From contig JBIJDH010000007.1 of NCBI GenBank assembly GCA_044344255.1, positions 1 through 64,000 on the forward strand: a DNA stretch of 64,000 nt, in the 5' to 3' direction. A model generated the notes under the pieces. It was not told the DNA's origin. It searched no databases and saw only the letters and a program-made list of their open reading frames with translations. This document shows, piece by piece, positions 6,801 through 49,193 of this stretch; positions within the stretch are counted from its first letter, which is position 1, and each line of letters opens with the position of its first letter. The stretch is from Myxococcota bacterium. Lineage in GTDB: Bacteria; Myxococcota_A; UBA796; UBA2385. Made by a program: the position numbers and the translations under genes.

Positions 6801-7136
6801 TCAGTCGGCGTCGATGGGGAGCGCGTCGCCGTAGGTGATCCGGAAGATCGCCTCTTCGATCGCGCGCATGTCCTGGGCGTGCAGGTTTCGGACGTCGTCC
6901 AGGGTGACGTTCGCCTTTTCGCCGAGGCGGACGATGCAGCGGGCCATCAGCAGCGTCTTGTAGACGAGGTCGTTCGGGTGCCGCTGGTACTCGAGGTTGG
7001 TGCCGATCGCGTACTCGTCTCCGCCGACCACGGGCCGCAGCTCGGCGACAGCGGACACCGCGCCCGTCTTTGGGTCCTGGTGACCGACAGGGAGGACGAG
7101 CACTTCACGGTACGAGGGGAGGCGCGGGCTGTTCAT
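6801..7136 (-). CDS. Tail assembly chaperone-like protein, paralog of 40936..41283
   Basis: Shares LPVG...GDE..IGT...PNDLVYKTLL..R...RLG.K.NVT..D...LH..D.RA.E....RITYG with 40936..41283. GGAG RBS before ATG 7136. Confidence 0.8.
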   Translation of the reverse strand: MNSPRLPSYREVLVLPVGHQDPKTGAVSAVAELRPVVGGDEYAIGTNLEYQRHPNDLVYKTLLMARCIVRLGEKANVTLDDVRNLHAQDMRAIEEAIFRITYGDALPIDAD

Positions 7137-7237
7137 CGGGGGCTCCACAAGGTGTTGGGCTTAACCGGGGGCGCGGGGGCCTACCCGGCCGCTCCGATCG
7201 ACGCGCAGGCCGGGCTCGGTCGGCCTCTGGCGCCACC

Positions 7238-48100: not shown

Positions 48101-49193
48101 TGAGCACGCTCATGCTCACGGCGCGGTTGAGCGCGCGGTTCCCGGCGATGCGCAGGAGCTGCGTGCGGGCGTCCGAGATGTTCGGCTGGCCTACCGAGCT
48201 GTCGGGGTGGATCTCGAAGATGAGCCCCGCTCCGCCCTTCCTGACCTTGCCGACGTACAGGAGCGACGGGTCGAAGGTGACGTCAGCGTTCTTGAGCTGC
48301 TCTCGGGCCTTGCCGCCGTCGAGCTCGGCCCGCTGGAGCCAGAGCACGGGCTTGCCGCGGCTCGGGGCGATGGCGAACCAGTGGTCAGCAGTGTGCAAGG
48401 AGGGCACGGTCTGGGCGAGCTGGCGCACCAGCGCCTCCGAGAAGCCCGGCGTGCCCTGCACGACCACGGGCGCGTCGTCGAGGGCGCGGACGAGGCGGTC
48501 GCGCTCTCGGGCGACCTGGATGGCCAGCTCCTGCACCTCCGACATGCGAGAGGAGCTGCCCTCCTTGCTGTCGAGCCAGTCCTGGATGGCGCGGGACAGG
48601 ACGGTGAGGGCGGTGATCCGCTCTTCTTCGTCGGCCTTCGGGTCGTACGCGCCGAAGGCGCGGTCGATGGCCTTGAGGGCGGCGGAGCGCCGCGAGAACA
48701 TGCGGCTCGACTTCTTCTTCCAGTCGTCGTAGTTGAGCGTGAGCTGCGTGGCGCCTTCGTCCTCGTCGTCGCCTTCATCGCCCCCGCCCCCATCCTTGGC
48801 GGGGCCGATCTGGTAGAGCGCGCCCTTGGTCGCGGCGGCGAGGTCGGTCATGCCCGCCGCGATGAGCTCCTTGGCCAAGATGACGAGCGACTTCGTGACC
48901 GCGTTGACGGGCGCCTGCGCGCTCTTGGCGGCGATGGCGCTCAACACCAGCCCGTGGTCCACCATCTCGATGGTGCCGACGGCGACGGCGGTGGGCCGGA
49001 AGGTGGCATCCGCCTTCTGGAGCGCCGGGGTGACCTTGGCCCGCTCGGCCTCGGCACCCGTCTTGAACAGCATGAAGACGGGGCTCGGAGTCAGCGCAAG
49101 GTAGAAGTGGGCGGCCGTGCCTGACTTCACCAGCGGCCAGACCTTCTTGAGCTGGATCGTCATCAAACCCTGAAGCTTCGAGTTGTACGCCAT
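45192..49193 (-). CDS. Multidomain toxin/effector: shared N-terminal domains, MLD-like helical bundles, RRSP/PMT-C2 (TIKI-like) domain, unknown C-terminal domains
   Basis: GGAGG RBS. IGEVHNSPDSKKFIVDNL...GVDTLYIEQF...LRVRGIDS...R...MN...KYIVLAGQAHNNTH..IPGLSQL; RRSAALKAIDRAF..Y...AIQDW...S.R...V..L..QV. Confidence 0.8.
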   Translation of the reverse strand: MAYNSKLQGLMTIQLKKVWPLVKSGTAAHFYLALTPSPVFMLFKTGAEAERAKVTPALQKADATFRPTAVAVGTIEMVDHGLVLSAIAAKSAQAPVNAVTKSLVILAKELIAAGMTDLAAATKGALYQIGPAKDGGGGDEGDDEDEGATQLTLNYDDWKKKSSRMFSRRSAALKAIDRAFGAYDPKADEEERITALTVLSRAIQDWLDSKEGSSSRMSEVQELAIQVARERDRLVRALDDAPVVVQGTPGFSEALVRQLAQTVPSLHTADHWFAIAPSRGKPVLWLQRAELDGGKAREQLKNADVTFDPSLLYVGKVRKGGAGLIFEIHPDSSVGQPNISDARTQLLRIAGNRALNRAVSMSVLTKVEVTIEGMNTGSVIQTAPSETLAAHNSTFTKLSRAAGLLKGQVSGPDRDRTAEVIRTAAGDWLDKNAKREHPADADKREEAWLSLKLSQDGVGATSRKELRVAGREFARELAEIQKIPTDPVDKPLQALLQLRAELEQWLKMARTQTDRAAVLELTALHEQTQRAIDALPDEVPDEVADPTLLDAALDELDKTLDLYVAEADLAEREKIKGVSTFLAECKRLADMALRHGLRPQAARADLLAKMFKCPASREKGLEWKPVLRVEFKGAVARVGLTVPPNKTAEGLEDELFKAAKQAINKGDRLRADDARQLLDVGYTLQQLREANFTVFRLLCRLAPGVSNQSPPRTATPEYSDYEKIEDAFGEPVAREQVVLRRQRRADAGHKLVQRPNFRGYDTLFTPTKVNTLKGHIQNKSPGDAVKSMLEDNDFPGVTIGEVHNSPDSKKFIVDNLESFKDAGVDTLYIEQFRVDEHQDDLDAYFKTGKMPEALAQYLKFQEDKHGVPFPDDLRGLLEKAQELGLRVRGIDSMDAKADPEVRDTVDKTTWTEQRVARMNALADDVITNDQGRKGKYIVLAGQAHNNTHRGGSEGIPGLSQLQKIPAVNVKDGALSLATEEPDARSHRPRKADASVLLSTTLGTAKRTAIGHEMHFEIHFENADQPEGEEYAPGELGWSFYQTVNGIRLEWWERIVVHWDFDATNLDAQGILDNQRQGVGGWTKAWADLLPSFPDSKTYEGWAKAVNLAREGKLPKMMTITIEDKPGILIRANRYSKRTLEFRHVVKDAHGKKIEALARQIIVVEDGKIVYSLYTDSAGHNEELRDQAYTTPLGNGEATPVFDLDADLPNNATTGAAAFVTRARAGEADSYLDKELDAFDAVYIDDPVSRNGHYQKLVKNQSCTMPLAREGYTYVQGAAPGGLYVALLNPRSDVERLYFTTDATWKNVKALGGCEPDSTIPCRQFIELPIEDYA

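Follow-up and report, generated by a model that had tools for sequence, protein, structure and literature searches.

We analysed a 64,000-nucleotide stretch of DNA (hereafter the window) which covers the first 64 kb of contig JBIJDH010000007.1 (278 kb) from the metagenome-assembled genome (MAG) of a Myxococcota bacterium (8.2 Mb, 95% complete). An unbroken array of 25-26 minus-strand genes, which runs over 42,393 bp from the ATG of p1 at 49193 to the stop codon of p25 at 6801, encodes a headless contractile injection system (CIS) and a large block of predicted envelope proteins. The explanation that we favour, with somewhat better than even confidence, is that this locus encodes a cell-anchored CIS, similar to a type VI secretion system (T6SS), with its own non-homologous trans-envelope complex. 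We favour it because the contractile core is related to two known intracellular or membrane-associated CIS types, because the locus is devoid of the parts that are typical of released particles, and because the core is tied by translational coupling and strict co-inheritance to predicted inner-membrane, periplasmic and outer-membrane proteins. Within this explanation, the system would share its CIS lineage of origin with the intracellular systems of Streptomyces and haloarchaea. We further infer that the baseplate is physically docked on the membrane proteins, that the system fires outwards and that it has a role in predation. A bolder version, to which we give slightly less than even credence, is that the locus represents a fifth, independently evolved class of envelope-spanning contractile machine of diderms, present in one uncultured class of Myxococcota, with a complex of about eight proteins (p15, p17-p23) and a function in contact-dependent attack. 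The idea that the families of this complex, and at least one fold (that of p17), are without known relatives is part of that bolder version and is held just as guardedly.

Regarding the layout of the locus, the genes were named p1 to p25, and a doubtful 60-amino-acid open reading frame (ORF), p19b, sits between p19 and p20. The G+C content of the window is 67-83%, and therefore ORFs are open in all frames; the genes were chosen from ORF lists together with the GC content at the third codon position (GC3 frame analysis). Every real gene of the array is on the minus strand and the largest intergenic gap is around 160 nt. All ten 4-nt stop/start overlaps listed in the initial annotation are present (33990, 33229, 32369, 30717, 21268, 19826, 18339, 18160, 14414 and 11358), two of them, 18339 and 18160, resting on the doubtful ORF (18157-18339). 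These overlaps chain the Cis11-like gene p12 through p13-p15, and then again p17 to p22. The conserved system extends from p2 to p23 and leaves p24 and p25 outside, because p24 is not conserved and p25 is an extra copy of p6.

The contractile core, p2-p12, was matched with Pfam, NCBIfam and PHROGs. The headless tail set that had been recognised from the sequence alone was recovered in these libraries (sheath, tube, spike, hub and gp25), no head genes were found in the window, and a Pfam scan of its 46 ORFs gave no capsid, portal or terminase. Thus the sheath, inner tube, gp25-like, gp6/baseplate-J-like, hub and spike proteins by which a headless CIS is recognised were all found, and the set of sheath, tube, spike and baseplate looks complete. 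The nearest solved sheaths to p4 were 9ezm (E 8e-57) and then 8bky and 8bl4 (E 1e-48), and the sheaths of Afp, PVC, AlgoCIS and tCIS were farther away than these three. The single sequence of p12 had no match among PDB sequences or families; a profile of seven orthologs matched chain 1K of 9gtp, a 'Baseplate protein J-like domain-containing protein' (E 1.1e-9). The structure 9ezm is cited in the description of a haloarchaeal 'archaeal T6SS', and 9gtp and 8bky in papers on the Streptomyces CIS.

The matches of the sheath p4 to solved sheaths and to plasmid-borne CIS begin at around residue 250-430. The N-terminal part of about 290 residues (1-290) is without a counterpart in either and looks like a lineage-specific surface domain. 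The spike p2, conserved in five of six related loci, also matched NF033848 VgrG_rel (positions 376-541 of 547) and TIGR01644 phage_P2_V. Two tandem paralogs of p2 (31-33% identity) lie elsewhere in the same genome, on contig C64 at around 75,890-77,044 (-), away from both CIS loci of this genome; these could be orphan spikes, each with a cargo of its own. The neighbouring p3 gave no Pfam, NCBIfam or PHROG match, even in a rescan at E<=5. Its core (residues 36-99) is 34-53% identical in five of the six related loci, where the ortholog ORFs have 93-115 amino acids in four cases and 754 in the fifth (G005_C14), probably a mis-called frame; we would guess that p3 is the spike tip. The chaperone-like p6 is 51-70% identical in all six loci. 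For p7 no match was found in Pfam, NCBIfam or PHROG (E<=5 included) or, by profile, among PDB sequences, and its position behind the chaperone gene suggests that it is possibly a length-determining or terminator protein. The tube adaptor p8 bears a C-terminal extension of about 160 amino acids, and p9 has no LysM match, unlike the second CIS locus of the same genome.

The envelope block starts behind p12. None of p13-p15 and p17-p24 had a Pfam, NCBIfam or PHROG match at E<=0.01 or anything of note at E<=5, and profile searches of PDB sequences with p15, p17, p21, p7, p14 and p13 gave nothing below E 0.08. Topology prediction, based on hydropathy, alignments and two structure models, gives the block inner-membrane, periplasmic and outer-membrane components. 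Membrane-anchored proteins had been noted here, five in number; their presence was borne out but the number was not, as we count six predicted inner-membrane proteins (p15, p17, p18, p19, p22 and p23). The soluble proteins p13 and p14 are conserved in all six related loci and are translationally coupled to p12 and p15. A complex prediction with p13, p14 and the soluble domain of p15, run without controls, scored 0.01 against a mark of 0.32, a value that speaks neither for nor against a contact. p15 itself occurs in all six long loci, its N-terminal hydrophobic segments are conserved in the orthologs, and its soluble domain has four invariant cysteines (C221, C231, C247 and C250).

The model of p17, which is confident, comprises an alpha/beta N-terminal domain (1-280), one transmembrane (TM) helix (282-311) and an all-helical, Cys-rich domain of around 600 amino acids. 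The protein has 18 invariant cysteines and, because all of them are located after the TM helix, the model fits a C-terminal domain that is disulfide-rich and periplasmic. No fold match was found for the model, the best Foldseek hit having E 0.06 at a probability of 0.09 and the best VIA hit a Z of 4.3; VIA barely covered the middle of the model (about 254-683) and a new fold is thus not proven. The p17 family comprises 141 representative clusters among 1.84 billion proteins. Three proteins of around 1030-1116 amino acids (P0152, P0155 and P0156) gave partial matches to the p17 profile at E ~1e-45, in three stretches, and may be distant relatives of p17 from an unsampled lineage; for P0152, no metagenome loci were found, and in 401 genomes a stricter first look gave no more than weak matches to the orthologs of p17.

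Regarding the following genes, 70 clusters out of 5.8 billion belong to the p18 family, all at E<=1e-116, without a Pfam domain and either unnamed or labelled 'hypothetical'. p19 had no family match in Pfam, NCBIfam or PHROG, including E<=5, and look-ups of p19 and p18 in the ESM Atlas gave no usable match, the Atlas models being poor (pLDDT 0.32 and 0.36). The DNA of p20, which encodes a long, disordered protein, has 82-83% GC and is open in all frames. We first suspected an artefact of this composition; however, all eight related loci have an equivalent (738-1389 amino acids) between p19 and p21 which keeps the composition and shares the motif of the last ~45 residues. A 2012-amino-acid open frame on the other strand (13308-19346, +), antisense to p20 and p19, is itself an artefact of the 82-83% GC, and the third-position GC favours the minus-strand frame there.

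A putative outer-membrane barrel had been proposed for this block and our model of p21 agrees with it at moderate confidence: an exported N-terminus is followed by a closed, OmpA/NspA-like barrel of eight strands (771-1008), with helical and beta periplasmic domains between the signal-peptide-like N-terminus and the barrel. With VIA the barrel was closest to NspA (Z 15.8, root-mean-square deviation 2.7, 146 of 155 residues aligned), followed by PagL (14.5), porin III of the Legionella Dot/Icm system (14.4), OprF-N (13.4), OmpW (13.3) and OmpA (12.9). With Foldseek, seven of the ten best matches (ranks 1-6 and 10) were porin or small outer-membrane barrel chains, none of which reaches E 0.001. 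Furthermore, several p21 orthologs begin with a signal-peptide-like sequence. The last two genes of the block are p22, which is weakly conserved (21-30% identity) in a syntenic position, and p23, with 32-39% identity in four of the six long loci and present also in three further loci (L025, L052 and L053).

The giant surface protein announced by the initial annotation is p16, whose exported features could be read: a signal peptide, nine PKD stretches, TSP3 and MopE repeats, and a C-terminus that begins Cys-rich, turns hydrophobic and ends in RRRRR. We take this C-terminus to resemble a MYXO-CTERM sorting signal. Only the C-terminal ~900 amino acids are conserved, and in 7 of the 14 loci with both neighbours visible p16 is absent and p15 abuts p17; p16 is therefore optional and not part of the core. 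A tail fibre was considered for p16 and ruled out, given the signal peptide, the C-terminal membrane or sorting segment and the absence from half of the loci. In another genome (locus L061, G157:C68 1-19,238) the equivalent of p16, upstream of p17, appears to exceed 18 kb and would be an even larger surface protein.

Six long loci in five other genomes have p2-p15, the C-terminal part of p16, p17-p19, p21 and usually p22 and p23 colinear on one strand, with 29-65% identity. Among 40 relatives, orthologs of the sheath, p18 and p21 were found in 15, 15 and 16 genomes respectively; sheath and p18 occurred together in 13, sheath only in 2, p18 only in 2 and neither in 23. Completeness is 78-93% in the four discordant genomes, all of which are fragmented, and in one of them (G034) the contig ends directly after p15. 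In 15 loci of 13 other genomes one contig carries both the sheath and p18 on one strand, at a distance of 13.5-34 kb that varies with the size of p16. A scan of public genomes, with one genome per species, gave 36 loci with p18, all from MAGs: p19 follows p18 in all 36, p17 precedes it in 32 (the remaining four contigs start at p18) and, of the loci, the 15 that reach far enough all have p21 further on. One genome (G025) has three diverged copies each of sheath, p18 and p21, so the copy number co-varies, and no paralogs of p12-p15 or p17-p23 were found elsewhere in the 8.2-Mb genome of the window. The p18 profile matches 21 of 401 sampled genomes of the phylum, all of them in the order of the window or in two families of the same class. 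Thus, inheritance and multiplication of the block go along with those of this sheath type, and the block was not seen elsewhere. Among the observations that would speak against its proposal, the initial annotation had named membrane genes living mostly away from CIS loci and a match of these genes to a known unrelated system. Neither turned up: the homologs adjoin this CIS type wherever the contigs are long enough to tell, and Pfam, NCBIfam, PHROGs, PDB and fold searches gave no such match.

Several parts of other contractile systems were looked for. The absence of TssJLM noted before holds in Pfam and NCBIfam, where the TssJ, TssL, TssM, TssK, TssA and ClpV families were all unmatched in the locus; the VgrG-related domains on p2 are its only T6SS-family matches. 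For TssN/O/P/Q/R, p13-p23 were also unmatched in Pfam and NCBIfam, libraries whose coverage of these families is uncertain. No AAA+ assembly ATPase (Afp15/Cis15) was found in the window, the sole AAA+ protein being a sigma-54 activator with PAS and HTH_8 domains. Neither a tail fibre (Afp13-like) nor a DUF4255 terminator (Afp16/Pvc16) was matched among the 25 proteins at E<=0.01 in Pfam, NCBIfam and PHROG, where divergent forms are possible, or at E<=5 for p3, p6, p7, p24 and p25. Lysis genes and LysM domains were not recognisable in the locus.

The same genome has a second, canonical locus of the extracellular CIS (eCIS) type on contig C52 (~235,000-262,600, loci L063 and L064; CIS at ~241-262 kb). 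It encodes an AAA+WHD ATPase, two sheaths, two gp19 tubes, a 1509-amino-acid protein, a CIS_tube+LysM protein, a 1163-amino-acid Baseplate_J protein and Tail_P2_I, then YukD-like and DUF748 proteins and Ser/Thr kinases. Of the 40 relatives searched, at least 39 have a match to a sheath of this type, and therefore the p2-p23 locus is an additional, patchily distributed system.

In the mechanism that we propose, the baseplate (p11-p14) would dock on one or more of p15, p17, p18 and p23 through their cytoplasmic domains. From there to the p21 barrel, the periplasm would be bridged by p19, p22 and p23 along with the Cys-rich periplasmic domain of p17 and the region of p21 that lies in the periplasm, and contraction of the sheath would push the tube, the p2/p3 spike and a cargo such as p1 through the complex into a touching cell. 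Where present, p16 may give adhesion.

A number of points weigh against a cell-anchored system of this kind. The contact between the baseplate and the membrane proteins is hypothetical, and p13 and p14 are candidate baseplate parts. The 6-8 TM segments counted in p18 leave the side of its conserved C-terminal domain ambiguous, and the model of p21 is moderately confident (pLDDT 66.3). An eight-stranded barrel is an anchor, too narrow as a channel for the tube. A ClpV-like ATPase for sheath recycling was not found in the window. Neither of the two closest characterised relatives has an outer membrane to cross, and that of Streptomyces kills the cell that makes it. Furthermore, all the genomes are MAGs, in which linkage across contig breaks is unverifiable, and the six contigs of ~150 nt in one lake metatranscriptome library that match p17 and p18 at 97-99% identity are weak evidence, compatible with carry-over of DNA.

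The similarity to the Streptomyces system raises the question of whether the CIS fires into the membrane of its own producer in a regulated death or lysis, with the membrane proteins acting as recruiters or triggers like CisA. Indeed, among bacterial structures the sheath and the Cis11-like p12 are closest to CIS-Sc (8bky E 1e-48, 9gtp E 1e-9), and neither a tail fibre nor a recycling ATPase was found in the locus. Nevertheless, eight conserved envelope proteins, with an outer-membrane barrel and large periplasmic domains, exceed what an adaptor at the cytoplasmic face needs, the operon includes an optional adhesin-like surface protein (p16), a toxin-like cargo gene adjoins the spike and an eCIS_core protein adjoins a related locus; we consider this self-directed function improbable. 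An ordinary eCIS released by lysis, next to a downstream block that is co-regulated but separate and serves the envelope in, for example, particle release, self-protection or surface remodelling without holding the baseplate, seems to us also unlikely, if a little less so. CIS clusters of Myxococcota MAGs have been read as eCIS (PMC11937823), the docking contact is hypothetical, and the sequences of p22 and p20 are poorly conserved. However, the 4-nt overlaps continue from the Cis11-like gene into p13-p15, and reappear from p17 to p22, the block stays strictly linked to the CIS and co-varies with it in copy number over a divergence at the level of the class, and neither a tail fibre nor lysis genes nor an eCIS AAA+ ATPase can be recognised in the locus, while the second CIS locus is canonical. 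The block also persists without p16 in 7 of 14 loci, so it is not merely a system for the export of p16.

That two unrelated operons are neighbours through nothing else than the shared ancestry of close genomes is the least credible of the explanations and very improbable. All the carriers do belong to one class of one phylum, and such kin are not independent. Against this, the identity between loci with the gene order kept is 29-47%, which means a long divergence, each of the three diverged copies in G025 keeps the block, and no copy of the block without a CIS was found on any contig long enough to judge.

If the cell-anchored reading is true, the locus would document another independent case in which a tail-like particle, free or cytoplasmic before, became a weapon mounted in the envelope. 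Few transitions from a CIS to an anchored machine are known: TssJLM, TssNQOPR and the single adaptors of Streptomyces, haloarchaea and cyanobacteria. The locus adds a new, larger and unrelated candidate membrane complex on an eCIS-type core in a Gram-negative bacterium, gives about eight orphan protein families a testable role, and provides a candidate, likely weapon of abundant uncultured freshwater myxobacteria. The proteins p11-p15, p17-p19, p21 and p23 form a defined set for structural co-expression.

Table. Genes and other features of the locus and its surroundings, with positions in the window
Feature	Length (aa)	Positions	Strand	Assignment	Basis
p1	1333	45192..49193	-	probable cargo/toxin	PF20899 E 1.3e-6, 28.2 bits (cut-off 27)
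p2	215	44481..45128	-	gpV/VgrG-C-type spike (OB fold + beta-helix)	PF04717 E 1.1e-14
p3	177	43951..44484	-	without family assignment	conserved ~60-aa core
p4	650	41859..43811	-	contractile sheath	PF17482, PF04984; phrog_23 E 3e-43
p5	143	41338..41769	-	gp19-type inner tube	PF06841 E 2e-21; TIGR02241, CIS5/CIS1 families
p6	115	40936..41283	-	tail-assembly-chaperone-like (weak)	phrog_508 E 5e-4; Gp41_Mu E 0.18
p7	402	39567..40775	-	conserved, without family	conserved in 6/6 loci
p8	306	38647..39567	-	gp19-like tube adaptor	PF06841 E 9e-25 (residues 16-145); CIS5_fam
p9	236	37891..38601	-	CIS tube-initiator (Cis7-like)	PF19266 E 2e-8
p10	344	36856..37890	-	gpD-like baseplate hub	phrog_52 E 1.3e-16; PF05954 E 0.0085, below cut-off
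p11	140	36407..36829	-	gp25/TssE-like wedge	PF04965 E 2.6e-10; phrog_43
p12	803	33987..36398	-	baseplate-J/gp6/Cis11-like	7-ortholog profile against PDB 9gtp
p13	254	33226..33990	-	conserved soluble protein	4-nt overlap with p12
p14	287	32366..33229	-	conserved soluble protein	4-nt overlap with p15
p15	551	30714..32369	-	3-4 N-terminal TM segments + ~370-aa soluble domain	hydropathy, 7 orthologs
p16	2234	24013..30717	-	optional giant exported surface protein	Pfam; termini read
p17	914	21265..24009	-	bitopic inner-membrane protein	AF2 model, 30-sequence alignment, mean pLDDT 82.3
p18	481	19823..21268	-	polytopic inner-membrane protein	6-8 hydrophobic segments + conserved ~210-aa C-terminal domain
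p19	496	18336..19826	-	exported, anchored	signal peptide, ~410-aa exported domain, C-terminal TM anchor (435-453)
p19b	60	18157..18339	-	doubtful ORF	just upstream of p20
p20	1249	14411..18160	-	Pro/Ala/Arg/Gly-rich low-complexity protein	conserved ~45-aa C-terminal helical motif
p21	1019	11355..14414	-	outer-membrane barrel protein	AF2 model, mean pLDDT 66.3
p22	307	10435..11358	-	N-terminally anchored membrane protein (TM 42-60)	TM prediction
p23	545	8742..10379	-	bitopic membrane protein (TM 189-207)	TM prediction
p24	500	7238..8740	-	locus-specific addition	
p25	111	6801..7136	-	paralog of chaperone-like p6	48% identity to p6
sigma-54-type promoter-like site		49261..49275	-	TGGCAACGCCATTGC	68 nt upstream of p1 start
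four genes downstream of operon		3409-4821 (activator), 2418-3488, 1329-2261, 4885-5676	-		

The ends of the array are variable. Residues ~797-976 of p1 resemble PMT_C2, HopBA1 and Tiki-ChaN, with PF22079 and PF04187 below their cut-offs. No ortholog of p1 was found in the six related loci, so it is a variable gene, and its domains make a variable cargo or toxin probable. Divergent to a related operon (locus L017, G005:C14, 3588-6251, +) there is an 888-amino-acid eCIS_core (PF13699) protein which is likely a cargo; cargo genes would thus differ between loci. At the other end, the initial annotation had the block bracketed by CIS genes, a Pvc16-like terminator and a second chaperone. The second chaperone corresponds to p25, the paralog of the chaperone-like p6. 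The terminator could not be confirmed: p24 has no family match in Pfam, NCBIfam or PHROG even at E<=5 and no ortholog in the six related loci, and this assignment of p24 was therefore rejected. The proposal of a CIS docked by its own envelope complex consequently keeps its linkage and its predicted topology, and loses the Pvc16-like bracketing.

The genes downstream of the operon encode a PAS/sigma-54-activator/HTH_8 protein, a C39-like papain-fold peptidase and two calcineurin-like phosphoesterases. Directly upstream of the operon promoter region there are an AbiEi-type antitoxin gene and an unannotated ORF (49436-50296 and 50314-51552, both on the minus strand), which may form an abortive-infection toxin-antitoxin pair.

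Expression would probably depend on sigma-54 and a nearby enhancer-binding protein. The TGGCAACGCCATTGC site is the only match in the window with at most one mismatch to a -24/-12 consensus; as ~2.5 such sites are expected per 64 kb, its position is notable and the count is not. In G025:C61 the ortholog of p2 has a similar site ~50 nt upstream, and the divergent neighbour of that operon is likewise a sigma-54 activator; the activator of the window (3409-4821, -) may control the operon. Neither a sigma-70-like promoter nor a minus-strand terminator was found inside the array with scans that are ill-suited to DNA of 73% GC. Regarding its occurrence in samples, 19 DNA runs from lake, freshwater or river samples contain the DNA of p17-p19; the stretch gave 20 rows (19 DNA and one RNA) from 16 studies, four of which rows may be the source. 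Two RNA runs (X22 and X23) gave no match to the stretch, which is not a sign of silence.

Among known systems, the haloarchaeal T6SS-like CIS has the nearest solved sheath by sequence (9ezm). In Halogeometricum borinquense (clade IIa) this CIS correlates with a six-TM protein, the candidate anchor Hbor_38620 (PMC11566945). The envelope there consists of a single membrane and an S-layer, and one gene is the candidate anchor, whereas here we find six inner-membrane proteins and an outer-membrane barrel. The p18 profile gave only 70 close relatives, of which the named ones are from bacterial MAGs (Myxococcota/Alphaproteobacteria) and none is labelled archaeal, Hbor_38620 not having been compared directly. 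A tblastn search of the sheath against a plasmid collection returned bacterial records only, none of them covering at least 80% of the query, and did not reach the haloarchaeal plasmid. The CIS-Sc of Streptomyces coelicolor has the next-nearest sheath (8bky) and the sole PDB-sequence match of p12 (9gtp). This CIS requires the bitopic membrane adaptor CisA (PMC12237407). It is, however, a cytoplasmic system of a monoderm with a cell-death function and one adaptor, and no equivalent of p15, p18-p21 or an outer-membrane component appears in the text covered. The layout that CisA has in common with p17 and p23 is the bitopic one only, in a comparison by description.

The Afp/PVC eCIS and the C52 locus have in common with ours the sheath, gp19 tube, CIS_tube, gp25, baseplate-J-like protein and adjoining toxin genes. 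In contrast to them, no AAA+ assembly ATPase, tail fibre, LysM domain or DUF4255 terminator can be recognised in the p2-p23 locus, where the spike is divided between two P2-like genes, gpV and gpD. Regarding other Myxococcota, ten core genes were modelled for the CIS of a Haliangiales soil MAG, including truncated spike and baseplate proteins that standard hidden Markov models missed, with a baseplate of three separate proteins and an AAA+ protein nearby (bioRxiv 10.1101/2024.12.19.629468, in part). This three-protein baseplate is possibly of the same type as p12-p14. The parts covered of that text do not mention a membrane block, and neither do those of a seamount study in which CIS clusters of Myxococcota MAGs were called eCIS and the other genes left hypothetical (PMC11937823). 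No description of the membrane block was found in the literature, although the supplements of both papers may list some of its genes as hypothetical.

As regards the T6SS, the TssJ-TssL-TssM complex of T6SS-i is similar in its predicted layout, with inner-membrane proteins that have cytoplasmic and large periplasmic domains and with an outer-membrane partner, which is a lipoprotein there and a barrel protein here. In T6SS-iii of Bacteroidota, TssNQOPR is a lineage-specific membrane complex, unrelated to TssJLM, whose genes occur only in T6SS loci (PMC10781749). The likeness lies in a contractile core beside about five lineage-specific, membrane-associated genes that replace TssJLM; the difference is that p15-p23 are without a T6SS family match and that our core is of the eCIS/CIS-II type (gp19 tube, phage-type sheath) and not of the Hcp/TssBC type. 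By analogy, we regard the TssNQOPR complex of Bacteroidota as the closest logical precedent for the envelope block described here.

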